Virus record (IMG/VR): IMGVR_UViG_3300042549_001343
Coordinates: 1 to 53,280 of that record
Direction: 5' to 3' (one strand)
Length of the DNA: 53,280 bases
Source: a virus
Lineage: Duplodnaviria; Caudoviricetes
Shown here: one piece after another, positions 8,212-53,280 of the stretch
How positions within the stretch are numbered: the first letter of the stretch is position 1
How the letters are laid out: each line of letters opens with the position of its first letter
Notes under the pieces: generated by a model
Database searches by the model: none
Told to the model about the DNA's origin: nothing
Seen by the model: only the letters and a program-made list of their open reading frames with translations
Position numbers and translations under genes: made by a program

Positions 8212-8228
8212 AATTCCTCGGCAACTGC

Positions 8229-9227
8229 TTAGGCTTTGGAAACCAGTGCATTGACCAGAGCTTCAGGCTTGGTCACTTTGTAGCCGTAGACATTCAAACC
8301 ACGAACGATGTTACCGAATGTGGATTGAGCGCGGATGGTCTCGACGTTAGCCATCTGTGAAGCGAAAGAGATCGCATCACGAGTGCCAGCCAAGATGTTC
8401 CAGCCACGAACGTCAGCAGCAGTACCTGTACCGCCAGTAGATGAGTCGGAACCCAAATCTGTTGCGTTAGGCAGGCTGTTGGAGACGAACAGGGTGAAGC
8501 GGTCGATCATACCCAACTTACCGTTACGCAAAGGAGACTGACTGTCACCAGTCAAGTACGCTTGCTTCAGGTCAGAGTTCTTAATCATGGCGGCCATCCA
8601 TGAAGGAATAACCAACCAACGACCAGTCTCAGGAACGTCTTGCTCGTCCAACACTTGGCCCATGTCCAAAATCAAGTCCAACACGTTGGTCTTGCTGATG
8701 GCGCGGGTAGCGTAGGTTGTACCCAAGTTGATGTTAGCGGAGAGAACGCCAGCGGTTGCGCCTTTGTTGGCGGTTGCTGCGGCTGTCTTCACACCATTCA
8801 ACACGTCAGTGTCGATAGTGATCTTCATTTGCTCGCTGGCATCGTTGGTGAACATGTCCATCAACTTAACGTCGGCTTGAACGGCATCAACGTCATCCAA
8901 CACCACAGAGAAGTATTGACCTTGGTCAATGTTCAACTCTAAAGGAGTAGATGTCGGGACTTCGTTTGTCAGATTCATACCCTTGGTGTATGAACGGATA
9001 GTGATGGTAGGGATTGAACGGATATAGACTTTGTCGCCTTGACCCTTGATCTCGCCTTCCCAGTCGTTGTTGGTGATCTCTGCAAGAACAGTGCTCTTGT
9101 AGAACTTGGCTTGCAACTTGCCAGACCAAACTTCAGGGATGAACTTGGTTGTACTGGCAGTTGAATACTGGGGATATGCTCCGCTGATAAGGGCTGCGGA
9201 ACCTGAGCCTGCTACTCCAATTGACAT
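8229..9227 (-). CDS. Major capsid protein (P22 coat-like HK97 fold)
   Basis: FIPEVWSGKL...EGEIKGQGDKVYI...GLNVYGYKVTKPEAL; follows scaffold, precedes terminator. Confidence 0.9.
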   Translation of the reverse strand: MSIGVAGSGSAALISGAYPQYSTASTTKFIPEVWSGKLQAKFYKSTVLAEITNNDWEGEIKGQGDKVYIRSIPTITIRSYTKGMNLTNEVPTSTPLELNIDQGQYFSVVLDDVDAVQADVKLMDMFTNDASEQMKITIDTDVLNGVKTAAATANKGATAGVLSANINLGTTYATRAISKTNVLDLILDMGQVLDEQDVPETGRWLVIPSWMAAMIKNSDLKQAYLTGDSQSPLRNGKLGMIDRFTLFVSNSLPNATDLGSDSSTGGTGTAADVRGWNILAGTRDAISFASQMANVETIRAQSTFGNIVRGLNVYGYKVTKPEALVNALVSKA

Positions 9228-9261
9228 GATTTTTCCTTAAAAGAAAGATTGATTGTTTGGG

Positions 9262-10146
9262 TCATCGAATACGACCCTCGACTGATGCTGATGCAATATC
9301 AGCTTCAATGGCAACTGCGTCTGCATCTGTGATAGTTCCTCGTCTCACCCTGTCGTAGAAAATTGTGATTTCTGCGCGAGTCCAAATCTTCTTCGATTGC
9401 GGTGTTGAAGGAGCTTGGTTTGTCGGTGGGACAATTTGCTGTTCCATTGATGCGGCGCTTTGTGCCGCCCACGATTGTGATGTCTTCTTAAACGTGTTGA
9501 AGAATTTCGCAGCACGAACTGGATCACGTTGCTGTTCTGCTTTGCCGAGAAGCGACTGTCTGGTTTCTCCTGTAAGGTCATCAACACCATCGAGCCAATT
9601 TAAAAAATTGGTGTCAGCGTTAAGGGCCTCCCAGTCGGGAACCATTTCGGTCAGTGATCTGAAGAAGCTGTCTTGAACAACGTGTGACTGAACAGATTTA
9701 ACTGAGTCAATTTCGGATTTGAGTTTTGCGATCATCGCATCCTTTGAGGCCAGTTCTTCTCTGGCAACTCGACGGGCTACGTCAATCAAACCCTCACCAT
9801 ATTGCTCAATCTCCTCTGGCTTCACCAGTAGTTCAGGAGGTTTGGCGTTCTTCATCTCTTCGAGTTGATCCTCTAGAGATTGAAGGCGGCCCTTCAAATC
9901 TTTATTCTCGTGTGCAAAGCGAGGAACTTCAGCGTTGTACTTCCCTTGTAAAACCTTGAATCGGTGTTCCCAGCTTTCCTCTTGAGGAGGAGGCGGAGAG
10001 TCAATAGTAGGTTGGGGAGTTGGAGGGTCTTGCGATTCAACCGGAGGTTGAGGCATTTGCTCCATCTGGCCTTGCTTCTCTATCTCTTGCAAAATTTCAT
10101 CTGCTCGCTTTTCAGCGGCGATTACTGCACGTGGTAATGTCGACAT
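9262..10146 (-). CDS. Capsid scaffolding protein
   Basis: WEHRFKVLQGKYNAEVPR, coiled coil, VPDWEALN, ends EGRIR; RBS GGAG at ATG 10146. Confidence 0.8.
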   Translation of the reverse strand: MSTLPRAVIAAEKRADEILQEIEKQGQMEQMPQPPVESQDPPTPQPTIDSPPPPQEESWEHRFKVLQGKYNAEVPRFAHENKDLKGRLQSLEDQLEEMKNAKPPELLVKPEEIEQYGEGLIDVARRVAREELASKDAMIAKLKSEIDSVKSVQSHVVQDSFFRSLTEMVPDWEALNADTNFLNWLDGVDDLTGETRQSLLGKAEQQRDPVRAAKFFNTFKKTSQSWAAQSAASMEQQIVPPTNQAPSTPQSKKIWTRAEITIFYDRVRRGTITDADAVAIEADIASASVEGRIR

Positions 10147-10149
10147 CTT

Positions 10150-10279
10150 TTCTCCGTGAGCCGAGACAGTCACATTCGAGTCTTGCGGTATTCGAGTGAT
10201 TTGTTCGGTGTTCAACGGTTGCTGGGAAGGCCAGCACCTGTTGCAGCAAAATGCTGCTAGACAGTCTTTCGACTATCTA
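10150..10279 (-). promoter_or_regulatory. Structured leader upstream of scaffold/capsid genes
   Basis: Consecutive hairpins (TAGATAGTC-GAAA-GACTGTCTA, GCAGCA-TTT-TGCTGC, GGTGCTGG..CCAGCAACC) then a nested GAACACC..GAATACC..GACTC..GGCTC stem ending at the RBS. Confidence 0.6.
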
Positions 10280-10510
10280 CCGCAACTTTCGGATAACCTC
10301 TTCGGCATCCTTTGATTTTTCTAAAAACTCACTCACAGCCTGCGCCGCTCCTTGCTGCCAACGACAGAGGACTTCGTCCTTTGTACTGGCGCTGTCACGA
10401 TACAGGTCTTGTAGTGAGGCCTCCATCCATTGAAGGATGGTCTCAAACTGGTTGTTGCCCTTGAGTGATGCAAGGGCGTTTAGAACTTGTACTGATGGCT
10501 TCTGAAGCAT
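10277..10510 (-). CDS. Conserved small head-region protein (Bbp19-like)
   Basis: 77 aa with WQQGAAQAV motif, between portal and scaffold. Confidence 0.7.
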   Translation of the reverse strand: MLQKPSVQVLNALASLKGNNQFETILQWMEASLQDLYRDSASTKDEVLCRWQQGAAQAVSEFLEKSKDAEEVIRKLR

Positions 10511-11502
10511 TACTTCTTTGCTTCTTTGCGTTCACGCTCTCGGCGCTGCATTGGTGTCTCGAAGTTACTAAAGTAATTCGACACAGCGTCCGCACCCTTT
10601 TGGAGAGTTGTCTTCATATCAGTTTTTGGTCTATTGTCTTTTGGGACAGGTGGTGATTTCATTGTGTCAGAGAACATGGCGGTCGAACTTGACAGAGGCT
10701 GCATGTTTCCTGCCCTGCGTTTTGCTACGTCTTCAGAGAATGATTTAGCCACATTCGAAGAAGACGGAGAAGCAGCGGCTGATGCAGAGTTGGCATTTGT
10801 ATTAGCCTGCTTCTTTTTATTTTCGGCGGCTTTCTTTTCGGCGGCTTTTTTGGCGGCGGCAGCTTTTCTGGCAGCGGCGGCAGCGGCGGCAGCGGCAGCG
10901 TCATTTGACGAAGCGGCATTTGACGAAGCAGCGGCGGCAGGAGCGGCAGGCAGGTCTTGCACGGCGGCTCTTGGTTTGGTGACCGCCTCAACGACAGCAG
11001 CTTTGTATGTTGGCTCTTCTGCTTTTACTTCTGCTTTTACTTCTGCTTTTGGCTCTGCCTTCTTCTCAAAATCCATTCCGCCCGACATAGCATTTTTCTT
11101 CGCAACATCAGAGTCTTTCATACCTGAATCGCCAGTGATGTTTGACGGAGAAGACTCAGCTTGCTTGTCACGAGTGAAGAATGAGCGAACAGATTCAACA
11201 GCAGATTTGAGGCGGTTCAAGTTTTCTTCTCCTGCCTTCATGCGGCGGTCGTAGCTGCCGGGATCAACCACACCAGAGCGAAGATTGGTATCTCCAATCT
11301 CGTCAGCAGAGCGAGTGCGAACAGAGCCGCCGTCAGCAAACTTGCGAACAACAGGCTTTGGTGCTTGAGGCATGTTGTTGTTTGCTTGAGAAATCTTTGA
11401 GTGAAGGGTGGACATGCCAACCTTCAGCTTCGGATTCATAGTTGAGGGAGAAGCGGGTGAGCTAGTCTTGGCGTAGCTCTTGTTTTGCCAATCTGGTTTC
11501 AT
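10510..11502 (-). CDS. Ala/Lys-rich low-complexity protein (putative internal virion protein)
   Basis: FADGGSV motif, KAEV repeats, poly-Ala tract. Confidence 0.75.
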   Translation of the reverse strand: MKPDWQNKSYAKTSSPASPSTMNPKLKVGMSTLHSKISQANNNMPQAPKPVVRKFADGGSVRTRSADEIGDTNLRSGVVDPGSYDRRMKAGEENLNRLKSAVESVRSFFTRDKQAESSPSNITGDSGMKDSDVAKKNAMSGGMDFEKKAEPKAEVKAEVKAEEPTYKAAVVEAVTKPRAAVQDLPAAPAAAASSNAASSNDAAAAAAAAAARKAAAAKKAAEKKAAENKKKQANTNANSASAAASPSSSNVAKSFSEDVAKRRAGNMQPLSSSTAMFSDTMKSPPVPKDNRPKTDMKTTLQKGADAVSNYFSNFETPMQRRERERKEAKK

Positions 11503-32214: not shown

Positions 32215-32837
32215 ATCGATCTTCTCCATCTTCCTCTGTCGGCAAGTTCCTGAACTGTTCTCTTCCGCAAAATGAACTCAATTGCACATTCTGTTCCGGG
32301 GAACAGCGTCTGATCTATCCTATTCGCACCGTACTGGTAGTTCTCGGTAATCAGTTCTATCTTAATCATCTCCGACAACTCACCCAGTCCGATAACTAAA
32401 TCTGTCACGTTGATGCACTGGTCTGACCAAGAGTATCTCTTGTACGTAGTGAATGTCCATTTGTGATCTGAGTTGTATGTGCTTGGGAATACACCCTGCT
32501 CATATAAGTCCTCGTCAGGCACGGTCACAATCAGATAGCCGTTGGGCTTTAACAGATTGAACCAAGCCTTCAGACCCTGACGTGGGTTGACCAGATGTTC
32601 AAGGCAGTGGCTGCTGTGGACAAAGTCCAATGACTCCGCCGCAAGTCCGGACATGTGTTGGGCATCGCCATCCTCTAAGTCCCACACCCTCACATTACCC
32701 ATGCCGCTGAACATATCTCTGTGTGCTGTAATGGGGTCAGGCTTTCCCCCAATGTCTATGCCGTCGCCAACAAAGTAGCGTCTTGCAAAGTTCGGATCAC
32801 GAACCCTACGTAGCATAGACTTACTGCACTCTTTCAT
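32211..32837 (-). CDS. Class I SAM-dependent methyltransferase (small-molecule/glycan type)
   Basis: DIGG motif I, DFVHSSHCLEH, LKPNGYL..TVPD; no DPPY/NPPY or PC DNA-MTase motif. Confidence 0.85.
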   Translation of the reverse strand: MKECSKSMLRRVRDPNFARRYFVGDGIDIGGKPDPITAHRDMFSGMGNVRVWDLEDGDAQHMSGLAAESLDFVHSSHCLEHLVNPRQGLKAWFNLLKPNGYLIVTVPDEDLYEQGVFPSTYNSDHKWTFTTYKRYSWSDQCINVTDLVIGLGELSEMIKIELITENYQYGANRIDQTLFPGTECAIEFILRKRTVQELADRGRWRRSI

Positions 32838-35800
32838 TTTTTAGGAACAGAGTAGTAGCGATCACCCATCTTGACAATCTCTGACCCGCGCTCTCGCTCT
32901 GCTTCCTCGGCCTTGTCCCACGTTTCGTGTTTCCTGCCTTTTAAAACAACATAGCTTCCATCAGGCAGCCCATACTTTTTCTTGTCTTCGGCACTCGCTT
33001 TAGTCACAGACCCCCAGTGACCAGCATTCTCATCTTTACCGTCAGGGCCAAGGCCAGCGGAAACAGCAGTATCGTAGTCATAGTCTTCCGACTCTGGGTC
33101 AAACTTTACTACCCCGCCATCAGCAAACTTCTTCTTGCTACCAACACGCATGTCCTCTACGCTCTTGGCGATTTGGATCCGGACTTGCTGGAGCCTTTCG
33201 ATCTCAAGGCGCTTCTCTGCACCACTCATAGTCTTGTCATCCTCAACCATCTTGATCTGATTGCTGATAGACGACATCATGTTCGTGCCTTTGGTGTACA
33301 GCTTTGCAAGCGCCAGCTTGTCTGATTTCTCTATGTAGATTTCATTGGCCTTGTCGAACTGTCCGGCATTCAGGAAGTGGCTGACATCTGCTGATGCTGT
33401 TGCTACGTCCTTAGAGTTCTCGTAGAACGATGTGACGTAACGAGACTGAGCTTGTGGAACGGTCTTCACAAAGTTTCCTACAACCAAGAAGTCATCGATG
33501 CGCTCGTATCTGGATGACGCTCCATCTTTGAATGGGGCAGCCATCATGTTCGATGAAGTCTGAATCACAGAACCCACCCAGCCAAGGTATCCTTTAATCA
33601 TGTAGTCGTACTGGATCGCAGATAGCTGAGAAGACTGTGTGCTGATTGCCCCACCTGTAGCCTTCGATGCGAACTCAGCAAACATGCCGTTGACCGTGCT
33701 GATTGCCACGGCAGCAGCAGATGTTCCGGGGCTAACCCTGTTCTCAACAGAGATCCGCTCCATACCCATAGATTCGATTGGCCGATCAGTGAAGCCATCC
33801 TTGTTGCGAGCAATGTCGTAGAGAGGACGAATGGCCTGCGGGATTGGGTTGACGGCGAAGGTGTCGTGCAATACAGCCAGCAGGCGTTTACCAAAAACCT
33901 TACCCTCAACCTGAGAATCGACCATCTGTTCTGTCACACGCTCAACCAGAGTTGCTATCGCACCCATCTCGAATGGCTTCGGAATGCGTACAGCCTTATC
34001 TGTTCCGGGGAGCTTGAACCAGAAGAAGGCATCACGATCCCAGTCTTCGCGCTTCTTCCAATCCTCATCGTCCTTCTGCGACAGATACAAAATCATGGCC
34101 GCAGCCACGACTGCTCCAGTGACGGTGGCAAACTTTGCCGCCTTCTGTCTCTCAGTGTCTGAAGCCTTGCCAGTCAGAACCTGCATGGTTGGGTCGAGAC
34201 CATCTCTTCCCAACTTGTACATACCCTGTAAGCGAGCATTAAAGTAAGGGAGAACCTGAGCCGCATACCGAATAGCCGAATAGCTTCCTTGCAAGCTGAA
34301 GTCCTGCAAATCTCTGGCGGCATAGGATGCCTCAAGGTGGGAAGCACCCTTTGCCCTGAGTTGTTGGTACAGCGCAAGACGGTTGGCGTTTTCAGAGGCA
34401 TCGCTTATCTCGTCGTACTTGTCTTGTATCTTTCCAAAGAAAGATGCCACCTTCTCTGGAGTATCCAGAATGTCTGCTTTGTTCACCCCTGTTTTGAGGA
34501 GACGCTTAACCGATGCGGACTGATCTCCATCGAAAGCGTTACCCATAGCGAACAAGCCACCACCAGCAAGAGCTTCTGCACGTTCATTCTTGTAGGCTCT
34601 CCAACCCTGCAACACGTTACCTATTGGGCTTCTGCTGAGTTCAGATAGGCCGATAGACTGGATGGAGTCTCGGATCAAGTTGTTGATCTTGAAGGTTGGA
34701 GACAAGGAGATGAAGCGAGTCAGTGTGGTTTTGAATCCACGCATGATGTCCATGCCCCAGCCGTAGCTAGGCATCTGTGCGACAGCAGACAGAGAGGTCA
34801 GCAGGAATTCATCGTCGATACGGTAGAAGGTTTCTACGCCCTTCTCCATAACTTTGACAGCGCCCTTCTCTTGTCTCTCCAGCTTGGTGACTACATCACC
34901 CATCTGAGTTGCAGAAGTCAATGTCTCGACTGCCGCCTGATTCTTCATCGAGGCTGACAGGATGTGCGTCCAGTTCATCAAGACGTTTTCCATCAGGTCA
35001 TTCAATGGGCGCTCGCTGCCCTTCAGTTTCTTGGACAGGTACTGACCAACAGCGCCAGAGCTAGTCTGTGCTGCTGACAAGCTGCCATCATCTTCCATCT
35101 GTCGGTAGAACGGGATGTACCAGATGTCTGCTGCAAAGCGTTTGTATCCTTCGGCATCGATCAGCCCGGTGTCTCTGGCGACATCGAGGACAGATCTGTT
35201 CAACTCGTTCATGTTCTTCAGGGTCTCGGCGTAGATGGCAAGACGAGACTTACCATTCTTCATCGTACCCATGTTGAGGCCACGCAAGGACTTAATGTCT
35301 TCAGGGCTGAAGAAACGCTCACGCTCATCCTTGGACAAGGCTGCTGCGCGATTGGCTGCAATCCAAAGAAGGAAGCGATCAACCTCACCGCCAACAGGAT
35401 CAAGAATCTCCAGTAACCCTTGGGTTCCCTTCTTCACATTCAGTGCGCCATCATCATTGAAGACTTGGCCGTAGTGGAGCAGGGTGGAGACAGCGCCATC
35501 CTGAGAGCCAGTTGACATACGCAACATCATGTATGCCTTCTGGCTGATGTCTCTGACAGAGCGGAACTTATCGAACGTACCTTGAACAATACGTAAAGCA
35601 AAGTTTGGACGAAGATGATCCAGCCTCTCCTTGATTGTCGGGGGAGAGTAGAAGCCTTTCTTCAGCGCACGATCACGGGTATCAGGGCTGACATCAGAGA
35701 ACTGTTCCTCGTATCTCTTGCGGCTGAACATAGGAAAGCCATCATTGGCGACCTGTTCTTGCAGGGATTCAGGAATCACAAAGCCAAGCTGTTGCCCAGT

Positions 35801-38800
35801 TCCATCAATCTCCATGACTTTGACTGAGTCTTTTCCAGCAATAGTCTTGGCAACAGACGGAACGATGGTGTTGTAGAACTCACGCATACCAGCGCCGCCA
35901 ATATCAAGTTGCTCGCCGCGAATAACTCTTGCTCCGCCGCCAATTTCTCCAACATCATCGGCAATCATCTTGGCTATATCCTTTCCGTATGTTCTACGGA
36001 TGGTGTCCAAGTCCATCTTGCCGCTTCCCTGCATTATCTCCATGTCATCTTTTACAGCCGTGATCTCGTATGTTTTTCCATCCTCGTATGCGTCATAGTA
36101 AATCTCATCTACAGCTTTAGATAGCCTGTACCTTTGGTTCTGTTGATCTCCAGTAGTCCACGCAACCCGGTCAATGCCCTTGGTTTGAGCGTAAGCAATA
36201 GCCCTTTTGAGGAGTAAAGATGCCCATGACTTTGTGTCTTTAATGAATGGGGCTTCAGGAACGCCGACACCCAAGGCTGACTTTATTGCCTCTTCTTTGG
36301 TGTTGCCATAAAGCCCAACCTGCCGCCTTGCGGATTCATCGAATACATACCAACCGTTTTTTTCATCTTTATAAACCTCAAACCCTGCTGGTAACTCTGT
36401 TCTTTTAGAGTCGGCAAAACCTTGTTCTCGCCCCTCTTGCGCTCTTTGGCTTTGGATTTCCTCCAAGAACAAAACATCATTACCCTCAGCATCCTTACGA
36501 ACATTGGTTCTCAACCATCCAATATGCTTGCCATATGCAAGATCACCAAAATGAATGGTGTCTTCTTCTTTGTACGGCTGGATACTTGGGTCTGTCAATA
36601 TTATTTCTGCATAGTCTCTTCCTCCGGGAAGAACGGTTGGCATGCTGCCGGTCGGCCTGTTGTACTTTGCTGTCAGCCTATCTTTTGCCCTAGCAAGAGA
36701 TCGCTCATAACCTCTAATATGCTCACGGTTAAACCTCACCAAAGAGGCATTGTCCTTTATCCATTGCTTGGCCTCTTCGCCAGTTAAGCTATCTGGATCT
36801 ATAAACCACTGTGGGTTTTCATCTTCGTATTGAGCGTCAACTATGCCAATGTAGTCATAGTGTTTTTCCATTTCGTCCCTGACGAACTCACGGTAGTCCT
36901 CCTCCGTGGGATCTTTGTATTCAGGAAGCGCAACAGATGGGTTGTCTGTCAATATGATGTCGTTGAGCTTGACCTTATTGCCAGCAATCCAATTCAGGAT
37001 AGTCTGCTTTTCGACCTTGCTTTCTTGTAGATCAAGCCACTCCTCAATACCAGTCCACTCGATCTCAGCATTCTTGATGCCGAGCTTAGACTTGTTTGAA
37101 TTGAGCCATGCCTTCCACTGCTGGGCAGGCATAGATGTCTGTTTGACAGATTCAAAGCCACGCTCCATTGCAGAGTAGAAGGTCTCAGTACCCTCTTTCT
37201 TTGTGCTGAACTGGATGCCTGCCTCTGGCTGGGCCGCCGCTTCTTGCGCTGCTGGCTGGATGTTTCCAAGAACATCAGCAACTGCACGACGCACAGCATT
37301 CAAATCTGTCACCAGATTCTTTGAGCCAAGGCTCTGGTCTCCACGAAGTTTTGCAATGACGTTGTCAATGAAGTCCATGACAATACGAGCAACCTGCTCG
37401 AACATGGTTGGGTTGTCATCAGCAAGCATCTGCCAGAAAGCGGACTCACCAAATCTGTCGCCAACAATATCTCCAATGGCTTCTTCCAAAATCAACGCAG
37501 GGTCTTTCACGCCCTCTTTGCCCATGACCATTGCATAGTCCAGCATTCCCGCCTGATCTAACAATGGAGTCAGCGAGTTAACCAACCTTCTGTAGGTGGC
37601 GTTATTGGATGCACGGAGCGAATGCACAAGCTCATGGCCGAATATGCGAATGTGTGGACGGCTACTGTTTATGTTGATGAAGATGGTGTCCGACCCCGAG
37701 AGGACTGCCCCGTCGAAGTCATTGACACTTCCCTCCTCCACTGCAAAATAGATAGGCTTTTTTCCGAACAGAGCGGCAACTCGTTGGACGGCAGAGATGC
37801 CGGGAACCTTTCCAACAATATCGCCCAGAGGAACTCTTTTCGCTGAGAAGGTTGCTGTGCTTCCTTGTCTTTTGAGGTAGGCTCTGACTTCGCTGTTGAG
37901 ATCGTCAACCGTTTTGAGCTTGGCATAACTAAAGTCCCTTCCAGTGGTGGTCGTTTGTTGCTCTCTACCCATGCTGAACTTAGCGCCAGCACCAGCGCCG
38001 AGATTGTCTTCAGCAGTCTTCTTCATCTGGGAGACTGCTCCAGCCAAGTCGCCGTCATCAACCATTTTGCTCAGCTTGACCACATCTTCTAAGTCAAGGC
38101 CGCTCTCTTCATACGCTTTGTTAATGCGCTCCTTAACACGAGCTTGTAGTGCAGGGTCAACTGCTGGCTTTGCTGGTGTTACTTCTTGCGGCTTCGCCCC
38201 GCCTTCGACAGGCTGATCGCCACGGCCTGTTTCACCGCCGCCTGTTTGTTCTTTGGCTGTGACGACCCGATCTTCCCTGACTTCTGGAAGTCCCCCACCA
38301 ACGTCTTCACGTTTTGGCTGACCACCTTTTGTGACTTGCCTTTTTTGAGTGGCATCTGTTTCTCCTTGTTTTGATTTGTAGTCACTGACCAATCTATCGA
38401 ACGCATCCCCGGCCTGCTGAAGAACAGCCTGATCTGTCTCTCCGTTGTCAGTGAGGGTGTCAATCGTGTTTTGTCGATATGCGCCCAGAGCCTCATCTAA
38501 TGAAGCGTACTCCCCAACTTGGTCAATTGCCGTATCAAAATTTGTTTTGACGACACCAGTAAATTCGGCTCTTTGTGGTTGAGCCTGTGCACCCGCCGTG
38601 ACGGCTGGCGCTGCAACAACAGGAGCGGCGGCCTTGCCCTTCTTTGGTTTTGTTGGCTTGGCTGTAGTGGCGGCTGGCGTTTCGACTGGTGCGGCTGGCG
38701 CAGCAGCAGTGACTTCTGGAGCAACGGTAGGAACAACCTCTGCTGGTTTCTTGCGTGACTCTACAAAGAAGAACGTGCCACCGCCTTCAGCTTTAGAGCG

Positions 38801-40786
38801 TTTGCCCTGACGGATGCGAGCCTCAAGACCCTGTCCGGCAAGGGTAGTCTGTGCGTAACCACCACTGCGCTTGCTTGTCTCTTTGTCCACAGGGCCAAGC
38901 AGAAAAGTCTCGGCGGCCTGCAATGATGGGAATCTGTTCCCGACCGGGCCTTTGTCTGTCGTGATACCAACCAAAGGCTCGAAGCCCTCTTGTCTGGCGA
39001 CCAAGTCTTCAGGAGACAGGGCGACCGTACCAGCCTGACCGCCGGTTGTTTCTGGAAGGATGACCGGCTGAGCTTCACCTTCAAGGGTGCGTGTCTCCAA
39101 GTTGGGTGTGACGCTGGCTCGCTGGATGACAGGCTCAATTGCGCCAGTGCTTCCACCCACTGCGGTAGAGGCCGTCTCGTCAAATGCAGCGAGGATGTCT
39201 GCCTCACGTTGCTTTCTGGTTTCAGCTCTGACTTCAGGAGTTGGGGCTTCCAATTCAACCAGCATGCGCTGTGTTGCCAAAGCCTTAACGATGACATCTT
39301 GGAACCTTGGGTCATCACCAGACTCAATGTTGTTGGCCTGAAGGATCGGGCCAATTCTTTCGTCGTCGAACATTGCATCGAACAATTCCTGACGGCCATC
39401 GTCAGAAGTCATGTCAGCTTTGGCTTGATCCAGAATCTGTCGGACTCTGTCGGGGGATGTCTTGCCATCTCGGAATGCACCGACCACAGCACCGACCGTA
39501 CCACCGCCCAAGCCACCCAATGCAAACGCATTGATGTACTCGTTCATAGCATCCTCGCCGGTCAGGGTTTTGCCTGCACCGAAACGCTCGATGGCTGTCT
39601 GGAATAATTCTTGGCCGCCTTCGATGCCAACACCAGCCGCGCCACCAATCAGCGCACGACCGGGACGGCCAGCGCCGGGGATATTGATCTTGCCAGCCGC
39701 AACGCCCAAGCCAAGGCGATCAACCGCCGCCTCAGACAGACCGGCAATAACGCCAGAGCCAAAGATGCGAGCCAAGTCGCCGCCATCTAACTCACGGCCT
39801 TCTTTGCCAGCTTGCTCTTCTGCTTCGCCGTAGATACCGCCAGTTGACTTGATGATCCCAGAGCCAGCCAAAGCAGTAGTAGAACCAATGTTCTTTGCCA
39901 CATTCTTTGTGGCTTCCTTCAGCATCACATCTGTCGCCGTATCAACTCCAGCCTTCTCTGCCAGACGAGCAGCTTCCTTGGCAACCATGCCCTCGATGAG
40001 ATTCTTGGCTACGGTTTTGGTTGCTTCTTTTCCAACAGCACCAGCAACAGCACCGCCTACAGCGCCAACAGGCGCGGCAGGGCCAGAGACAGCAGCACCA
40101 GCAAAAGCACCGAGAGCAGACGTAGCTACAGTCTCAACGATGTTTCCACCAAGGTAGCCAACGCCATACTGCGCCCAGTCAACCAGCGCACCAAGGTCTC
40201 CCTGCTTTGCTTTGGCCCAAGCCTTGGTTACATCATCTGTCTCTTTGGCTGTTGCGCCGATCTCTTTCATTCTGGTCTGGTACTCGCTGAGACCAAACTT
40301 CTTGAGGGAGGACATTGAGCCGCCCTCTCCAAAGAGCTTCTCTCCAGCGGCTCCGGCAAATCCAAGTGCGCCGTATGCCAGTGCTGGTGTTTGCTCTAGC
40401 GCTACAGCACCACCTCGCAAAAAGTCGCCGGTATCTTCGGCAGGCTTTGCGGCAACAGGCTCTGTAGATGGAACAGTCATCCCAAACTTAGAGTCAAGGA
40501 TGTTGGAAAGGCTCTGTCTTTTTTCCTGCGGTTGTCCAACATCAGCAGTAGTCTGAGGTGCAGGCGCACTTAACTTTGCGTCAAGGATACTAGCTAATGA
40601 CATCTTCCCATCTGCCGCAGGGACTGGGGCGGCGGATGTAGATGGAGCAGTCAGGGCTGTTCTTGGTGCAGGCTCGAACCCCTTCGACCTTGGAAGAACC
40701 TCGGTGGACAGCGCCTCCTCTTTAGATAAATAAAGAGGGTTTTCTTCTGTTTCATCTAGCCCAAGTAAAGACAGACCTGTTCCCAT
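32834..40786 (-). CDS. 2650-aa polyvalent ejection protein (zincin HExxH peptidase, EIQS/GNAT-like domain, LPD38-like C-terminus)
   Basis: Gly/Ala hydrophobic N-region; GHELVH at 37622-37639 with downstream EEAIGD; LFLEEIQS...APF...LLKRAIAYA; W.RD.FFW.....RIPKPFE.G. Confidence 0.85.
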   Translation of the reverse strand: MGTGLSLLGLDETEENPLYLSKEEALSTEVLPRSKGFEPAPRTALTAPSTSAAPVPAADGKMSLASILDAKLSAPAPQTTADVGQPQEKRQSLSNILDSKFGMTVPSTEPVAAKPAEDTGDFLRGGAVALEQTPALAYGALGFAGAAGEKLFGEGGSMSSLKKFGLSEYQTRMKEIGATAKETDDVTKAWAKAKQGDLGALVDWAQYGVGYLGGNIVETVATSALGAFAGAAVSGPAAPVGAVGGAVAGAVGKEATKTVAKNLIEGMVAKEAARLAEKAGVDTATDVMLKEATKNVAKNIGSTTALAGSGIIKSTGGIYGEAEEQAGKEGRELDGGDLARIFGSGVIAGLSEAAVDRLGLGVAAGKINIPGAGRPGRALIGGAAGVGIEGGQELFQTAIERFGAGKTLTGEDAMNEYINAFALGGLGGGTVGAVVGAFRDGKTSPDRVRQILDQAKADMTSDDGRQELFDAMFDDERIGPILQANNIESGDDPRFQDVIVKALATQRMLVELEAPTPEVRAETRKQREADILAAFDETASTAVGGSTGAIEPVIQRASVTPNLETRTLEGEAQPVILPETTGGQAGTVALSPEDLVARQEGFEPLVGITTDKGPVGNRFPSLQAAETFLLGPVDKETSKRSGGYAQTTLAGQGLEARIRQGKRSKAEGGGTFFFVESRKKPAEVVPTVAPEVTAAAPAAPVETPAATTAKPTKPKKGKAAAPVVAAPAVTAGAQAQPQRAEFTGVVKTNFDTAIDQVGEYASLDEALGAYRQNTIDTLTDNGETDQAVLQQAGDAFDRLVSDYKSKQGETDATQKRQVTKGGQPKREDVGGGLPEVREDRVVTAKEQTGGGETGRGDQPVEGGAKPQEVTPAKPAVDPALQARVKERINKAYEESGLDLEDVVKLSKMVDDGDLAGAVSQMKKTAEDNLGAGAGAKFSMGREQQTTTTGRDFSYAKLKTVDDLNSEVRAYLKRQGSTATFSAKRVPLGDIVGKVPGISAVQRVAALFGKKPIYFAVEEGSVNDFDGAVLSGSDTIFININSSRPHIRIFGHELVHSLRASNNATYRRLVNSLTPLLDQAGMLDYAMVMGKEGVKDPALILEEAIGDIVGDRFGESAFWQMLADDNPTMFEQVARIVMDFIDNVIAKLRGDQSLGSKNLVTDLNAVRRAVADVLGNIQPAAQEAAAQPEAGIQFSTKKEGTETFYSAMERGFESVKQTSMPAQQWKAWLNSNKSKLGIKNAEIEWTGIEEWLDLQESKVEKQTILNWIAGNKVKLNDIILTDNPSVALPEYKDPTEEDYREFVRDEMEKHYDYIGIVDAQYEDENPQWFIDPDSLTGEEAKQWIKDNASLVRFNREHIRGYERSLARAKDRLTAKYNRPTGSMPTVLPGGRDYAEIILTDPSIQPYKEEDTIHFGDLAYGKHIGWLRTNVRKDAEGNDVLFLEEIQSQRAQEGREQGFADSKRTELPAGFEVYKDEKNGWYVFDESARRQVGLYGNTKEEAIKSALGVGVPEAPFIKDTKSWASLLLKRAIAYAQTKGIDRVAWTTGDQQNQRYRLSKAVDEIYYDAYEDGKTYEITAVKDDMEIMQGSGKMDLDTIRRTYGKDIAKMIADDVGEIGGGARVIRGEQLDIGGAGMREFYNTIVPSVAKTIAGKDSVKVMEIDGTGQQLGFVIPESLQEQVANDGFPMFSRKRYEEQFSDVSPDTRDRALKKGFYSPPTIKERLDHLRPNFALRIVQGTFDKFRSVRDISQKAYMMLRMSTGSQDGAVSTLLHYGQVFNDDGALNVKKGTQGLLEILDPVGGEVDRFLLWIAANRAAALSKDERERFFSPEDIKSLRGLNMGTMKNGKSRLAIYAETLKNMNELNRSVLDVARDTGLIDAEGYKRFAADIWYIPFYRQMEDDGSLSAAQTSSGAVGQYLSKKLKGSERPLNDLMENVLMNWTHILSASMKNQAAVETLTSATQMGDVVTKLERQEKGAVKVMEKGVETFYRIDDEFLLTSLSAVAQMPSYGWGMDIMRGFKTTLTRFISLSPTFKINNLIRDSIQSIGLSELSRSPIGNVLQGWRAYKNERAEALAGGGLFAMGNAFDGDQSASVKRLLKTGVNKADILDTPEKVASFFGKIQDKYDEISDASENANRLALYQQLRAKGASHLEASYAARDLQDFSLQGSYSAIRYAAQVLPYFNARLQGMYKLGRDGLDPTMQVLTGKASDTERQKAAKFATVTGAVVAAAMILYLSQKDDEDWKKREDWDRDAFFWFKLPGTDKAVRIPKPFEMGAIATLVERVTEQMVDSQVEGKVFGKRLLAVLHDTFAVNPIPQAIRPLYDIARNKDGFTDRPIESMGMERISVENRVSPGTSAAAVAISTVNGMFAEFASKATGGAISTQSSQLSAIQYDYMIKGYLGWVGSVIQTSSNMMAAPFKDGASSRYERIDDFLVVGNFVKTVPQAQSRYVTSFYENSKDVATASADVSHFLNAGQFDKANEIYIEKSDKLALAKLYTKGTNMMSSISNQIKMVEDDKTMSGAEKRLEIERLQQVRIQIAKSVEDMRVGSKKKFADGGVVKFDPESEDYDYDTAVSAGLGPDGKDENAGHWGSVTKASAEDKKKYGLPDGSYVVLKGRKHETWDKAEEAERERGSEIVKMGDRYYSVPKK
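38179..38355 (-). CDS. Overprinted 58-aa basic protein (MPLKKGKSQKVVSQNV...QAVAISLSKAGRSRKK)
   Basis: Strong RBS AAGGAG 6 nt before the ATG; resembles a widespread small phage protein family; alternative frame inside the giant gene. Confidence 0.8.
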   Translation of the reverse strand: MPLKKGKSQKVVSQNVKTLVGDFQKSGKIGSSQPKNKQAAVKQAVAISLSKAGRSRKK

Positions 40787-45713: not shown

Positions 45714-46178
45714 TTAAGCAACCAATCCATTCAAGTAGGTCGTCTTCCCAGCAACTTTGGTGGCAGTCAATTCCTGCTTCTTCAAGTTGTTCGGATCGTA
45801 ACTGACATGTACCCAGCCGCTGTCTGGAATTCCCGGTGTGTAGAACTCAAGAATCAACTGTGTATATTCCAGATTATCCATGATCCACTGCGCTAAGTCA
45901 GCATTTGCTACACCCGGAATCTCAATATCGGCTGCCATCCCCTTGCAATGGTCTGAGGTCTTCGATCCTCCGACTGCTGCATTTGACTCGGGAGAGCGGA
46001 ACGCAGAATTCACCTTGACACCTTTACTGTAGTGGTCACGGACAGGTTGTAATACTTTCTCGCACAAAAGACGAAGGTTCTCTGTCGTTTCGTCGTCGGG
46101 CGTGTTGTCGAAGCCCATGCGTAGGGCTGTCTCTGACTTGGTCAGTTCGTGCAGGCTGAAGTTTGCTGAGAGGTTCAT
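45714..46178 (-). CDS. Endolysin, peptidase M15A family
   Basis: LSANFSL.EL, SAFRS...N..VGG...SDH..G.AADI, WVHVS. Confidence 0.9.
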   Translation of the reverse strand: MNLSANFSLHELTKSETALRMGFDNTPDDETTENLRLLCEKVLQPVRDHYSKGVKVNSAFRSPESNAAVGGSKTSDHCKGMAADIEIPGVANADLAQWIMDNLEYTQLILEFYTPGIPDSGWVHVSYDPNNLKKQELTATKVAGKTTYLNGLVA

Positions 46179-46657
46179 TGTTTACTCCTTAGGGTTTGAT
46201 AGATGGTGTTGTATGCGTCGATGCAGGCGTTGAGTTGTCGGGTGTTGGCATCTCCTTGGTCGGTGATGGCGACAAGAGATTGAGCAGTCGTTGCGTCAAG
46301 TTCGGCTCCTGCTTGAACGCTATCTCCGGAGGGAGGGGTGGAATCTCCGGAGGTTTGTATGGGGCAGATGGGGGTTTTGACAGGAAGGCGCAGCTTGAGA
46401 GCGCCAGAGGCAAGAGCAGCGTCACGCTCCTTTGAAGCAAGTTTTGCGTCATAGTTGGCTTTCTGAAGTTTGGTGGATTGGGTTTGAATTGCTGAGACTA
46501 GGATTTTCTCCTTCTCTCTGGCCTCAGCATTGAGTGCGGCAATCTCAAGTTGCTGACGAGTTACCTCATCCTTTGAGCCTTTCCAATACCCACTGCCAAA
46601 CGAACTCAGCACCGCCAAGACGATGCCAAGAATCACGTATGGGTTAAATATGCTCAT
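46175..46657 (-). CDS. Rz: Inner-membrane spanin
   Basis: N-terminal TM, coiled coil, GD....QLNAC C-terminus. Confidence 0.85.
   Translation of the reverse strand: MSIFNPYVILGIVLAVLSSFGSGYWKGSKDEVTRQQLEIAALNAEAREKEKILVSAIQTQSTKLQKANYDAKLASKERDAALASGALKLRLPVKTPICPIQTSGDSTPPSGDSVQAGAELDATTAQSLVAITDQGDANTRQLNACIDAYNTIYQTLRSKQ
46189..46452 (-). CDS. Rz1: Outer-membrane spanin lipoprotein embedded in Rz
   Basis: Lipobox LSSC and Pro-rich mature part, in an alternative frame inside Rz. Confidence 0.8.
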   Translation of the reverse strand: MTQNLLQRSVTLLLPLALSSCAFLSKPPSAPYKPPEIPPLPPEIAFKQEPNLTQRLLNLLSPSPTKEMPTPDNSTPASTHTTPSIKP

Positions 46658-48015: not shown

Positions 48016-48567
48016 CTATACAAACCATGTCACCATAGAATACCGCGTACCTGACAGAACCGGCAAAATTTCATGCGGGAACATAAAATTAGAAGGAAAC
48101 AAAATAGCCGCCCCTTTTGGTAATCTTATGGTCGTGTTGCGGTCAAAAAAAGCAAACTCCCCGCCTTCGTATCCGTCGTTAAGAGCGAATGAACAAGAAA
48201 TACAACGAGCGTGTTTTTCGTAAGAATCTGTGTGCTGGGCGTAAAACTGCCCTGTTTCGTAACGAAGTAGTTGATACCCGGTATCTCCTCTAATTTGAGC
48301 TTTGGGGTAAATCTCTAAATATTTTTGTAGCGCAGACCCCGCCGCTCTAAATAGCATTGCATCAAGCTGCGCTCTGATTTCTGTATTTTTGTTTATTATT
48401 TCTTTGGACAAAAAAATAGCCGAAGCAGATCGAATATTTTTGTTGACCACATCGTTATCGACAACTGTGTCTACCCATTCACCTGAGCCACTGAACTCAT
48501 TGAGCAAAGCATCGCACAAATCCAATGGGACAGTGTTTTCAAAAACTTTAATGTAGTCTTGAATCAT
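48016..48567 (-). CDS. 2OG-Fe(II) oxygenase (prolyl-4-hydroxylase-like)
   Basis: HTD...YEGGEF...FPS...HEILPV..G.RYS. Confidence 0.92.
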   Translation of the reverse strand: MIQDYIKVFENTVPLDLCDALLNEFSGSGEWVDTVVDNDVVNKNIRSASAIFLSKEIINKNTEIRAQLDAMLFRAAGSALQKYLEIYPKAQIRGDTGYQLLRYETGQFYAQHTDSYEKHARCISCSFALNDGYEGGEFAFFDRNTTIRLPKGAAILFPSNFMFPHEILPVLSGTRYSMVTWFV

Positions 48568-48576
48568 CTGCTACCC

Positions 48577-49179
48577 CTACGGACGTTCTTTGTAGTTGAG
48601 AAACTGTGTCAAGGTCTTGCGATATTTGCCCTCTTGTGATTGGACAGGCTCCACCTCATGCAGGACGCATCCGGGGAAAATAACTGTTTTATTTCTGACT
48701 GGCAATATGCGCACGCCAAATTCCGGAAATACAAGGTCGCCCCCAGTAAACTCATCTTCGCCAATAAACGTAACAATCGTAAAAGGCGTGCCATCATAGT
48801 GGCCCAAATAGCCTTCATTGTTTGCATACACATTCAGCAATGTTGTACGCCTATTTGTGTTTTTAAGGTGCATGTAGTTTGCTGAAGTCTTTTTGAGTTC
48901 ATCGACAATTTCTGGGATGGACGTCTTTGTGACCAGACGAAGTATCCCGGCGTTTTGCCACTCTGGGCTGTAATAATTATTTAAAAGCAGCCCCCGCCCT
49001 GTCTTCAAGATTCTTTCATCCTGTGTTTTTGCACTGAATGTTTCCTCAGGGTATTGCAACACACCCAAGTTGATTATGTGATTTACCTCATTTTCAATTT
49101 CTTCCAGTTCCTCAGGAAGAAATAAATCGTCAACGATGGCGTAATCAAGCGCCTCAACTCTGTGGGCAGTTACTTGCAT
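48577..49179 (-). CDS. 2OG-Fe(II) oxygenase (second, divergent)
   Basis: HYD...FTGGDL.F...FPG..LHEV.PV...R. Confidence 0.88.
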   Translation of the reverse strand: MQVTAHRVEALDYAIVDDLFLPEELEEIENEVNHIINLGVLQYPEETFSAKTQDERILKTGRGLLLNNYYSPEWQNAGILRLVTKTSIPEIVDELKKTSANYMHLKNTNRRTTLLNVYANNEGYLGHYDGTPFTIVTFIGEDEFTGGDLVFPEFGVRILPVRNKTVIFPGCVLHEVEPVQSQEGKYRKTLTQFLNYKERP

Positions 49180-49180
49180 G

Positions 49181-50098
49181 TTAAGCAGTCCTTTTCCACA
49201 TATACACAGTGATATATGGCTGGTAGTTAGCATTTGTGCCACTTGAACCAGCAGAGTCAATTATTGTTGTAATATTTGCTGTTGATGTGCCTACATTTAC
49301 ATTTGTTTGAGACGGTATTCCAATACCGGGTTGGCCTCCTCCCGCGCTATATTGAAAAAATCCGCCAATATTTCCGTCTTGTACGTGGGTATGCCCTGAA
49401 TCCGTAGAAGTTGCTGTGTGAGTGTGGCTAACAGTAATTGCATCTGCACTACCGCCTTCTTCTCCAACAGTGTCAAACAGTGCATTGCTTGAGTCAAAGC
49501 CAACCATGACCTTACCAGCCGCAAATGCAGTCCATGTGCCAAAACCAAGCAATGTTGCAGGGTTAGTACTAACAGAAGCATTTGTGTAGATAGATCCAAC
49601 TGGATACGAGGCTGCTAATGCCGCTTGTACAAATGCAGTAGATGCGGCAGATGTATCACTGTCACCAAATGTTTGAGTTGGAACAGCTAGAGTCCCAGAG
49701 ACTGTTGCCGCTCCAGAAATTGTGACAGTACTGCTAAATGTATTTGCCCCAGAGAACGTATTTGCTCCGGAGAACGTATTGTCCTTGTCTTGACCAGCAA
49801 AGTTATTCAACCCAGCCGCAGTAACTCGCAAAGAAATATTATCCCCGCCGGTAAAAGATCTACCTGTCGTACCCTCTTGTGCGCGAACAACTGTTAAAGA
49901 ATCTGTCGATCTAGCAGTTACTTTAATAATCTCAATGTTGTTGCTGGAGTCAATGATGGTGGCGTAAAAGTAGTCACCTGATGACAGAGTGGGGAACAGA
50001 GCGCCCTGACCAGAAGCAACAGTTACGGTTGTGGCCGTACTGTTGATTGAGGCAGATAGCGCGGCTACGGCGTTGTTGGTAAATTTCTGTTGAGCCAT
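49181..50098 (-). CDS. Tail fibre / collar-like virion protein
   Basis: RAQEGT N-domain, NTFSGA repeats, YPVGSIY...QPYITVYMWKRTA C-domain. Confidence 0.85.
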   Translation of the reverse strand: MAQQKFTNNAVAALSASINSTATTVTVASGQGALFPTLSSGDYFYATIIDSSNNIEIIKVTARSTDSLTVVRAQEGTTGRSFTGGDNISLRVTAAGLNNFAGQDKDNTFSGANTFSGANTFSSTVTISGAATVSGTLAVPTQTFGDSDTSAASTAFVQAALAASYPVGSIYTNASVSTNPATLLGFGTWTAFAAGKVMVGFDSSNALFDTVGEEGGSADAITVSHTHTATSTDSGHTHVQDGNIGGFFQYSAGGGQPGIGIPSQTNVNVGTSTANITTIIDSAGSSGTNANYQPYITVYMWKRTA

Positions 50099-51430: not shown

Positions 51431-52018
51431 TTATCCTTCGAGTAAGAGGTTTATAGTGCCAGCAGATGGAGTAGTGTCAAAGGTGTCAGTGCCGTTGACT
51501 GTAGTGATGCGGACTCGGTCAAGAACACCACCAAGCGTTATATCTCCAGCACCAATGCAAGATATATTTGTCGTATTTCTAAAAGAACTACTAGAAACCC
51601 ATGTATTTCCAGAAATTAATGTCAAAACCATATGCCCACTAGTTGCAGATGCCGCTTGATTTGAATTTAAGAAAAATCCAGATGTTGCGCTGGATGTCGA
51701 TAAAGTTGAAGCACCCAATGAGGTGGAATTGGAGGCGTACCCAGAATTAGATACAGAACCAGAGCCTATTTGCACTTGAGGCAAAGAAGTCCCGCTTGTA
51801 CTCACCCCACTAAACATGACCGTCACACGTTTCACCCATGAGGGGATGGAATTGAAATCAATAGAAGTTTGCCCCGCACAAGTTACCGCTGTTGCCAATG
51901 TATTGACAGAATTTGTTGCAGTAGCAGCAAGCAAAGTCAGCGTGTTTGTACCCGCAACAGCAGGGGCATTGACCACAAGCTGCCCTGATGTATCTCCTGC
52001 TAAAGCAAATCCAGCCAT
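51431..52018 (-). CDS. Tail protein paralogue 2
   Basis: GDTSG...APAVAG N-terminus plus the shared domain. Confidence 0.85.
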   Translation of the reverse strand: MAGFALAGDTSGQLVVNAPAVAGTNTLTLLAATATNSVNTLATAVTCAGQTSIDFNSIPSWVKRVTVMFSGVSTSGTSLPQVQIGSGSVSNSGYASNSTSLGASTLSTSSATSGFFLNSNQAASATSGHMVLTLISGNTWVSSSSFRNTTNISCIGAGDITLGGVLDRVRITTVNGTDTFDTTPSAGTINLLLEG

Positions 52019-52027
52019 CTTGATTCC

Positions 52028-52237
52028 TTAAAGAACAACCCAGCGTGATCCCGCTGGAATGGTTACTGTGACACCGGCATTCAATGTGATCGGCCCGACA
52101 GACATGGCACATGCCCCTGATGTGATGGTATAGCTGACAGTCACCACCTTGGTGTTTTCGTAGATCGGCACTGACGGGTTGAACGCTTGTCCACTGCCGT
52201 CACCCACCATTGAAGAAGCTACTTTAGTTAATGCCAT
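52028..52237 (-). CDS. Small virion protein (SVGPITL..GVTVTIP.GSRWVVL)
   Basis: Recognisable motif of aquatic phage tail modules. Confidence 0.8.
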   Translation of the reverse strand: MALTKVASSMVGDGSGQAFNPSVPIYENTKVVTVSYTITSGACAMSVGPITLNAGVTVTIPAGSRWVVL

Positions 52238-52242
52238 AATGT

Positions 52243-52767
52243 TTACTCATAGAGAATGTTGATTGAACCAGCGTCAAAGGTGTCAGTTCCATTTACGGTG
52301 GTGATGCGGAGTTGAGTAAGGGTGTCGGAGAGGGTTTTTGTGCCAGAGCCAAAACCACCTCTTGCAGTTGTATCGTTAATATTACCCGCACCAACCCAAA
52401 TATTACTACCTAGTGTTGTGAATACATACATACCGCTAGAACTCTGAGTGGCTATAGCTACAGTGGAAACTAAAAATCCCGCAGTTCCATTTGATGTTAC
52501 TGGGGTAGCATTTGTTATATAAGACATTAAAGAGTTATAGCCAGTTGTTTCTATACCCCCAGAATCCCCTAATTGAACTTGTAAAAAAGATGTGCCGCTT
52601 GTACTTACCCCATTAAACATGACAGTAATGCGCTTCACCCAAGATGGGATGCCTGTAAAGTCAATACTTGTTCCAGATGTAGACGCTTGTACAGTACCAC
52701 TAGTAATTAACGATCCACCTGAGTTTGCATTTGAGCCTATTGCGGCTAGATTAACTGCTTTTGTCAT
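52243..52767 (-). CDS. Tail protein paralogue 3
   Basis: MTKAVNLA N-terminus plus the shared domain. Confidence 0.85.
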   Translation of the reverse strand: MTKAVNLAAIGSNANSGGSLITSGTVQASTSGTSIDFTGIPSWVKRITVMFNGVSTSGTSFLQVQLGDSGGIETTGYNSLMSYITNATPVTSNGTAGFLVSTVAIATQSSSGMYVFTTLGSNIWVGAGNINDTTARGGFGSGTKTLSDTLTQLRITTVNGTDTFDAGSINILYE

Positions 52768-52772
52768 GTTGT

Positions 52773-53280
52773 TTACTCATATAAAATGTTAATTGAACCA
52801 GCATCGAATGTGTCAGTGCCGTTTACTGTGGTAATGCGGACTTGGGTAAGCGTGTCGGATAGAGTTTTTGTACCGCAAAACAAATACTGAAAAGCAGAGC
52901 CAATGTTATACGCACCTAACAAAGCCCATGTATTTGACCCCAATAAAGAAAATACAACCTGACCATTTCTTGTTTGGGTTGAAGAAGTGTCGCCTGTACT
53001 GTCAAAACCAGAAGTTGAATAAAGGGTAGAAACTGTCGAGCCTATTTGAGTACAAGTTCCAGCATACCCAGTTGTTTCTATTCCACCAGCGTCACCAAGT
53101 TGTAAGCGTATAGTGCTTGACCCATTTGTACTGACGCCATTAAACATGACAGTAATGCGCTTCACCCAAGATGGGATGCCTGTAAAGTCAATACTTGTTC
53201 CAGATGTAGATGCCTGCACAGTGCCAGAGGTGAGAACACCTACACCTGTCGGCGTACCCGCTGTGACTGGGCTGGTCAAT
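52773..53280 (-). CDS. Tail protein paralogue 4 (3' part of the gene starting at 792)
   Basis: Continuous with 1..792 through the terminal overlap. Confidence 0.85.
   Translation of the reverse strand, partial: LTSPVTAGTPTGVGVLTSGTVQASTSGTSIDFTGIPSWVKRITVMFNGVSTNGSSTIRLQLGDAGGIETTGYAGTCTQIGSTVSTLYSTSGFDSTGDTSSTQTRNGQVVFSLLGSNTWALLGAYNIGSAFQYLFCGTKTLSDTLTQVRITTVNGTDTFDAGSINILYE

Follow-up and report, generated by a model that had tools for sequence, protein, structure and literature searches.

Complete genes lying inside other genes are known from several phages, and lambda-type Rz1, within Rz, forms an embedded same-strand pair of this kind. In phiX174, gene E lies within gene D, and the nested gene is the de novo member of the pair (PMC8227390). 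In such classic embedded pairs the nested gene is young, lineage-restricted and de novo, and the enclosing gene is ancestral. The viral record IMGVR_UViG_3300042549_001343 (Duplodnaviria; Caudoviricetes), analysed over its whole length of 53,280 bp (the window; estimated 96% complete), holds a pair that resembles phiX174 D/E and Rz/Rz1 in that one gene, complete and with a start of its own, is enclosed by another on the same strand and in a different frame, with both frames maintained. Its polarity is reversed, however. The nested gene belongs to a large family (2,672 representatives) that is mostly free-standing, and the reading of the enclosing giant gene over it is the novel, phylogenetically restricted member, without amino-acid constraint. 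Unlike the nested genes of the classic pairs, this nested unit can, moreover, pass between host genes that are unrelated. The stretch is probably dual-coding, an ancestral functional small gene having been inserted as a cassette into an already giant gene and kept in both frames.

The enclosing gene also has described counterparts. LPD38 and InPase are listed as phage-type modules of polyvalent proteins (Iyer et al. 2017, PMC5512222), and the giant protein of the window resembles the proteins treated there in being giant and multi-module, in carrying LPD38, in its virion or ejection neighbourhood and in its swapped modules, such as InPase. The modules in that account are protein domains in frame with the polyvalent protein, whereas the "module" of the window is a separate gene whose in-frame reading is only a spacer. 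The main text of PMC5512222 contains neither "overlap" nor "frameshift", and searches of titles and abstracts on overlapping or embedded genes, polyvalent or ejection proteins and PB1 virion proteomics returned no description of this arrangement. Frames that arise de novo tend to encode disorder (Rancurel et al.; Willis & Masel 2018, both as summarised in PMC8227390). The giant-frame reading is similar, the younger reading being disorder-prone and free of amino-acid constraint, but instead of making a new gene it adds a 58-residue insert to a giant protein that already existed.

For the nested protein itself, the closest described relatives are phrog_2423/DUF6496-like small proteins such as PB1 gp20 and WJZ48066 of phage DSL-LC04, with which it has the N-terminal MPLKKG...KQAVAIALSKAG domain in common. 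Proteins of the phrog_2423 type are likewise small and basic, and the window copy has all 11 invariant columns of the family. Their genes are free-standing or form the N-terminal domains of larger proteins, often between portal or head-morphogenesis genes and protease genes. Unlike them, the window copy has no intergenic DNA of its own.

The nested gene is present once in the window and runs on the minus strand from an ATG at 38355-38353 to a TAA at 38181-38179. It lies wholly within a single open reading frame (ORF) of 2650 codons (40786-32834, minus strand), on the same strand and in another frame, the giant codons beginning 2 nt later than the nested ones. On the minus strand its start region reads AACAAGGAGAAACAG-ATG and includes a Shine-Dalgarno (SD) sequence, AAGGAG. 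Read in the giant frame, the 177-nt stretch gives QGETDATQKRQVTKGGQPKREDVGGGLPEVREDRVVTAKEQTGGGETGRGDQPVEGGAKPQEV, and the enclosing ORF has ...KQGETDATQKRQVTKGG... over these bases. The preliminary description, made from the letters alone, had claimed an SD-ATG opening a nested same-strand ORF in a shifted frame; this was confirmed, and the 58-amino-acid (aa) translation is identical. A 6-mer SD at 4-10 nt precedes 2 of the 159 same-strand ATGs of the giant gene, the second heading an ORF of only 17 codons, and an SD of at least 4 nt precedes 23 of the 48 predicted genes of the window. Four long alternate-frame ORFs in the giant gene (101-212 aa) were also considered; none matched PHROG or Pfam, and they are taken as chance ORFs. 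Because the SD is so rare among the ATGs and the four other nested ORFs lack a family match, the nested gene is regarded as more than chance. A promoter scan of positions 37900-39000 found no sigma-70-like site, a result that is uninformative for a phage late operon.

Database searches place the nested peptide in a widespread family. It matches the phrog_2423 hidden Markov model (HMM) with an E-value of 1.1e-11 (45.6 bits; residues 1-58 on profile positions 1-43 of 52) and is 68% identical to WJZ48066, an annotated 83-aa coding sequence that follows the portal gene in Phage DSL-LC04. A search of a 5.8-billion-protein set with the peptide yielded 65 small homologues of 43-95 aa, some of them 58-aa proteins called on contigs of about 1 kb and 72-86% identical to it. 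A profile built from 36 members, window peptide included, matches 2,672 cluster representatives at E<=0.001, of which 244 also pass E<=1e-10; among the 150 profile matches listed, the domain starts at residue 1-5 in 131, and 20 are longer than 150 aa. With a short-form member as query, tblastn found 464 GenBank phage records, 303 of them from Pseudomonas, 79 from Acinetobacter and 19 from Caulobacter, among others. The columns invariant across the 36 sequences are M1, P2, L3, G6, N15, Q43, A44, A46, I47, K51 and A52, and the window peptide contains both family motifs, MPL.KG at the N-terminus and KQAVAIA..KAG at the C-terminus. The likeness to a stand-alone phage family, which the preliminary description had noted with a suggestion to search the peptide by BLASTp and HMM, is therefore real, and stand-alone homologues are plentiful.

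Other searches with the peptide or region were negative. Blastn of the region against GenBank phages gave no match, and the window peptide matched nothing in Pfam or NCBIfam, PF20106 (DUF6496) being absent even at E<=1. DUF6496 matches weakly in 7 of the 36 relatives (best E 3.8e-4), and the Atlas lists it on 17% of one neighbouring cluster; on these profile matches, kinship of the nested-gene family to DUF6496 would be distant at most. AlphaFold2, run with the 36-sequence alignment, predicts a two-helix hairpin with helices at residues 9-26 and 37-51 and a predicted local distance difference test (pLDDT) score of 87.8. Foldseek with this model found nothing in the PDB at E<=0.001 and only uncharacterised relatives in BFVD. 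Literature searches of titles and abstracts returned no account of DUF6496 or of the function of the nested-gene family.

The relatives show that the nested arrangement is maintained. The loci compared were 46 from a search with the giant protein and the best 80 of at least 472 confirmed peptide matches, and tblastn of the nested peptide over all collected loci sorted nested from free-standing copies. Beyond the window, 22 contigs hold an intact nested ORF inside a long ORF in the +2 phase, with the giant frame open across each; 19 came from the giant-protein search and three (L052, L053 and L054) from the peptide search. Free-standing copies occur at 75 loci, none with a giant-protein homologue within 6 kb. 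Counted over ±120 nt, the nested copies comprise 17 distinct versions of 57-59 aa. All 17 keep a start (ATG in 16, GTG in L052), a stop and an SD-like motif 5-9 nt upstream, which is AAGGAG in most versions, AGGGAG in two, GAGGGG in L052 and GGAG in L053/L054. Four versions have an in-frame stop as close as 5-6 codons before the nested start, which excludes entry into the nested frame from far upstream. The preliminary description had proposed looking among relatives for stops in the nested frame or loss of the ribosome-binding site; neither was seen in any of the 17 versions, and none of the 22 other contigs holding the segment has a broken nested frame. A tree of 38 family members groups all 17 nested copies with a single free-standing one (L056), at a support of 93/96 and without internal resolution. 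By eye, the C-terminal residues of the gene preceding L056 look endolysin-like.

Substitution patterns indicate which of the two frames is constrained. Across the 17 versions, 26, 20 and 45 of 58 columns vary at nested codon positions 1, 2 and 3, and nested position 2, which is the third position of the giant frame, is the least variable. A flank control of 58 giant-only codons from 13 loci gave 18/17/49 variable columns in the giant phase, whereas the overlapped stretch of the same 13 loci gave 16/14/35 in the nested phase (position 3 versus position 2, p 1.7e-4). Nucleotide identity averages 82.0%; at the amino-acid level the pairwise mean is 81.6% for the nested frame and 64.0% for the giant frame. 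Of the 136 pairs, 134 have the higher amino-acid identity in the nested frame and two have equal values. The ratio of nonsynonymous to synonymous change (dN/dS) in both frames across relatives, a check suggested in the preliminary description, was obtained by an OLGenie-style partition with a codon bootstrap; nested dNN/dSN is 0.355 (bootstrap 0.22-0.49) and giant dNN/dNS is 1.07 (0.76-1.82). Because column counts, flank control, identities and ratios agree, purifying selection is assigned to the nested frame alone: judged by these sequence comparisons, the amino-acid sequence of the small protein is under purifying selection and that of the giant frame over it is not.

The giant frame shows a different kind of constraint. 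It is free of stops over the cassette in all 17 nested versions, whereas the equivalent phase is stop-free in only 15 of 68 unique free-standing homologues (3 of 21 among those 165 nt or longer). Of the free-standing homologues, the five closest (L055, L057, L001, L056 and L059) have 4-14 stops in this phase, and synonymous resampling of five nested proteins left the giant phase open in 0.1-0.6% of trials. The remaining phase (+1) contains stops in 17 of 17 nested versions. Over the cassette, the giant frame thus appears to be selected only for the absence of stop codons.

What the giant frame encodes there is probably an unconstrained, disordered spacer. The segment is 81% polar, Gly or Pro and 14% hydrophobic. 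In an AlphaFold2 model of giant residues ~745-993, segment residues 63-129, which include the overlap at 67-124, have a pLDDT of about 30 and no secondary structure, and both flanks are helical with pLDDT 63-80. The disordered linker claimed in the preliminary description is borne out as a prediction by this composition, the low pLDDT and the dNN/dNS of 1.07.

Comparison of the giant genes suggests that the nested gene behaves as a mobile cassette. The giant-protein alignment places it in a hypervariable part of the protein, whose modules are present in some relatives and missing from others, and in every host it lies 727-935 aa from the N-terminus. Directly upstream of it, the relatives have no fewer than three different modules (...DYKSKQGE, ...QVQPTQGE and ...EYLTKQGE), and L013 and L016 have additional modules just 3' of it. 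The module NF(D/E)TAIDQV...YKSKQ is permuted, lying upstream of the cassette in the window and downstream in L013 (~5340-5600). Eight loci (L028, L029, L048, L022, L030, L036, L043 and L047) lack the cassette at the covered site, and the cassette-free relatives examined are single ORFs of 2192-2718 aa. In L029 (giant gene 2956-10920), whose protein has InPase plus LPD38, the InPase domain (PF18823, E 2.9e-57, residues 693-826) sits in the variable region in place of the cassette, and L048 and L022, when aligned, have an insert homologous to the L029 InPase region. Two of the cassette-free relatives are complete genomes with terminal repeats, and a profile search at E<=1 found no copy anywhere in them, the positive control giving exactly one copy in 5 of 5. 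Since two complete relatives do without it, the small gene is accessory.

The cassette is also found in giant genes of other kinds. The nested copies of L052 and L053/L054 are 71-74% identical and lie inside giant ORFs of 2476 and 2082 aa, whose proteins have no other blastp similarity to the window giant protein. These proteins fall in other PHROGs, phrog_11358 and phrog_10089 ("DarB-like antirestriction"), and the genes next to the giant gene of L052 had no PHROG match. Nucleotide similarity to these loci is limited to query positions 602-761 (L052) and 598-783 (L053), with the gene at 601-774, and similarity with L013 and L021 starts 16-21 nt upstream, at the SD. Because similarity ends at those bounds, the inherited unit is the gene together with its SD and stop.

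These observations allow a mechanism to be proposed. The late transcript of the structural operon would carry the giant gene. Ribosomes that start at the giant ATG at 40786 would read the cassette two bases out of phase, producing a flexible Gly/Glu/Gln-rich spacer between helical modules, and ribosomes that bind the internal AAGGAG would start at 38355 and make the 58-aa protein. Recombination in the region where modules are swapped would have brought the complete cassette, from SD to stop, into a gene that was giant beforehand. Inserted in its own phase, the cassette would cut the giant protein short, and the +1 phase has stops, so that only the observed phase would be viable; this would explain why all 17 versions have the same phase. 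Later, the cassette would have been exchanged between different giant genes or captured by them independently. The small protein is most likely translated separately by internal initiation, and selection on its frame suggests that it may be expressed in its own right. Because its family is large and stand-alone, the nested gene appears to be older than the giant-frame reading of the same stretch. We infer translation of the giant frame through the cassette, as well as the direction and mechanism of insertion.

Other explanations of the overlap have to be weighed against this one. The preliminary description held that the giant protein had grown by reading through an intact gene, which would require that two virion genes flanking the small gene fused on loss of the upstream stop, the giant gene arising as it swallowed the small one. 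The giant frame does run straight through an intact gene, the distance of the cassette from the N-terminus is similar in all hosts, and a stand-alone member in L079 abuts the stop of a 1980-aa ORF, so a small gene can directly follow a giant one. However, the cassette-free relatives are equally giant single ORFs (2655-2718 aa) with other modules (InPase) at the site, and the split arrangement of an N-part gene, a free small gene and a C-part gene occurs in 0 of the 46 giant-gene loci. The modules beside the cassette vary from one close relative to another, with a permuted order in L013; the cassette, from SD to stop, also lies in two otherwise dissimilar giant genes with homology ending at these two signals, and 0 of the 75 stand-alone loci have a giant-protein homologue nearby. 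This comparison does not support the read-through claim as it was put, and such a fusion is considered unlikely. Because cassette-free relatives are giant, flanks differ and the cassette occurs in unrelated giants, the preferred account is that a cassette was inserted into, or exchanged within, a modular gene that was giant beforehand. It is less probable still that the small-protein sequence exists only within a larger polypeptide, made by a programmed +1 frameshift from the giant frame and joining an N-terminal giant fragment to the small domain. Such a product is suggested by P0069 (785 aa, from one contig of 8,683 bp), which was called as an in-frame fusion of this kind, with the N-terminal ~727 aa of a giant relative, and ends at the small-gene stop. 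An A-run, CTCAAAAAAGGC, follows closely on the nested ATG in the window, and in some phages the family domain is fused to larger proteins, as in BcepB1A gp26. In most relatives, though, the A-run is interrupted (AAACAAGG) and the start reads MPLKQGK or MPLKSGK, no conserved slippery site was found at the frame junction in the 17 nested versions, and an ATG or GTG with an SD-like motif is kept in all of them. The in-frame stops 5-6 codons before the start in four versions leave almost no room for a shift site, and the frame change in P0069 lies well upstream of the cassette and, compared with L010, resembles a single-base indel. P0069 may reflect an error in sequencing, or it may be a natural variant, either split or frameshifted.

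The nested ORF could, in the least credible of these explanations, be a recently captured and unexpressed relic, or one kept for a nucleic-acid-level reason, with the giant protein as the sole product. The cassette is dispensable, as the complete relatives without it show. Nucleotide identity among versions nevertheless averages only 82%, yet start, stop and SD persist in 17 of 17, substitutions have a three-base periodicity in the nested phase, giant synonymous positions are the least variable, and none of the 22 other contigs has a broken nested frame. Column counts, flank control and OLGenie-style ratios largely refute this explanation. Several points nonetheless weigh against a dual-coding cassette. 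The in-frame fusion in P0069 fits a frameshifted product, a sequencing error being equally possible, and ribosomes may initiate inefficiently at a start within an ORF that is itself being translated. A tree built on 58 residues cannot tell one capture from several, and the free-standing L056 lies within the nested group. The sequences are related and the pair counts non-independent, although this matters less for the column counts and the flank control. Finally, the disorder predicted for the giant frame rests on a 13-sequence alignment, which is so shallow that the model is supportive only.

Gene neighbourhoods give some indication of what the small protein may do. The survey took in thirty free-standing loci flanked by 2.5 kb or more on each side, with 58 of their 119 neighbouring ORFs searched against PHROGs. 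A portal gene adjoins the small gene in 7 of the 30 (L055, L001, L066, L067, L121, L077 and L087), and a head-and-packaging neighbour lies within two ORFs in 12. The non-portal neighbours of this class are terminase (L064, L070 and L119), major head protein (L111) and head morphogenesis (L099) genes; the remaining neighbours are varied (endolysin, DNA transfer protein, RusA, oxygenases) or without assignment. In PB1, the family gene gp20 lies between gp18 (minor head protein) and gp19 (head morphogenesis) on one side and gp22 (head maturation protease) on the other, and in Cronobacter phage A24 the family gene precedes the terminase and portal genes. BcepB1A gp26 (L130, 4001-4300), annotated as a head maturation protease, has the small-protein domain as its N-terminus, directly followed by a putative Nudix box. 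From these neighbourhoods we would guess, with less than even confidence, that the small protein is head- or virion-associated, or an N-terminal module bringing cargo to the procapsid. More speculatively still, it may be a co-packaged partner of the giant protein. In L079, the free-standing member (6001-6123, plus strand) begins where the 1980-aa ORF (59-6001, plus strand) ends; this ORF has no PHROG match and only a sub-threshold HATPase_c match, and the locus may represent a state adjacent to a giant gene.

The giant gene lies downstream of genes matching the internal virion protein phrog_511 and the virion structural protein phrog_8003, and portal, terminase and major head genes occur elsewhere in the window on the same strand. 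From LPD38 and this context, the giant protein is identified as a putative phage-type polyvalent virion protein. Near its C-terminus it has the sequence KKKFADGGVV, and KKFAEGG- or KKYAEGG-like motifs recur in the basic tails of longer stand-alone homologues, which are of low complexity (P0068, P0070, P0072, P0078 and P0079; 150-209 aa). Judging by sequence, KKFAEGG-like stretches may be a short linear motif common to the giant protein and these homologues.

The window also has what looks like a conventional embedded pair, since an Rz-like spanin gene encloses an 87-codon ORF in another frame. The N-terminus of this ORF is signal-peptide-like, followed by LSSC (lipobox-like) and a Pro-rich body, and it resembles an embedded Rz1 o-spanin. 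Elsewhere, a run of three genes (168-195 aa), all with hits to the C-terminal portion of phrog_29482 (E 9e-9 to 3e-14), forms a tandem paralogue array, and two adjacent genes both match one 2OG-Fe(II) oxygenase family.

Table. Coordinates of the nested gene, the giant gene and other features in the window.
Feature	Position	Strand	Remarks
Nested gene	38179..38355	-	58 codons + TAA; basic protein, phrog_2423 family, predicted two-helix hairpin
Shine-Dalgarno AAGGAG	38367-38362	-	6 nt before nested ATG; read in the giant frame as part of Gln-Gly-Glu
Giant polyvalent virion-protein gene (putative)	32834..40786	-	2650 aa; Pfam LPD38, phrog_18222 (E 3.7e-181)
LPD38 domain of giant protein	33527..34069	-	residues 2240-2420; E 8.7e-32, 111 bits versus cut-off 27
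Giant-frame spacer over nested gene	38180..38353	-	~residues 812-869; Gly/Glu/Gln/Thr-rich
Upstream helical module of giant protein (NFDTAIDQV...DYKSKQ)	38356..38551	-	one of several alternative cassette neighbours
Chance ORFs in giant gene	38761-39399, 37669-37992, 36994-37299, 33598-33909	-	PHROG and Pfam negative
KKKFADGGVV region of giant protein	32834-33100	-	
Rz-like spanin gene	46175-46657	-	phrog_1327
87-codon ORF within spanin gene	46189-46452	-	
Three consecutive genes	51431-53279	-	phrog_29482
Two adjacent oxygenase-family genes	48016-49260	-	phrog_61

This locus also bears on how phage genes are counted and how giant proteins are built. It would represent overprinting in reverse, in which an old, widespread gene is kept intact within a giant gene whose own frame runs across it under no constraint but that of avoiding stops. 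This offers a testable route for the gain of linkers in modular polyvalent proteins, and it implies that the unit shuffled in giant genes is a DNA cassette, which need not be a protein domain. Real genes of this class would escape one-gene-per-locus annotation; such a caller would miss the nested gene wherever the giant ORF is intact, as the preliminary description had anticipated in speaking of a class of missed genes. The switch of codon phase between flank and cassette (18/17/49 in the flank versus 16/14/35 in the shifted phase) is a simple signature that could be scanned for across viral metagenomes. More speculatively, and with less than even probability, the nested gene may be an instance of out-of-frame cargo, in which self-expressing cassettes ride in the alternate frame of giant polyvalent genes and move between unrelated giants by domain-shuffling recombination, with new disordered linkers as a by-product. 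If true, out-of-frame cargo would give phages a general means, so far absent from annotation, of concealing and spreading small genes and of producing linkers.

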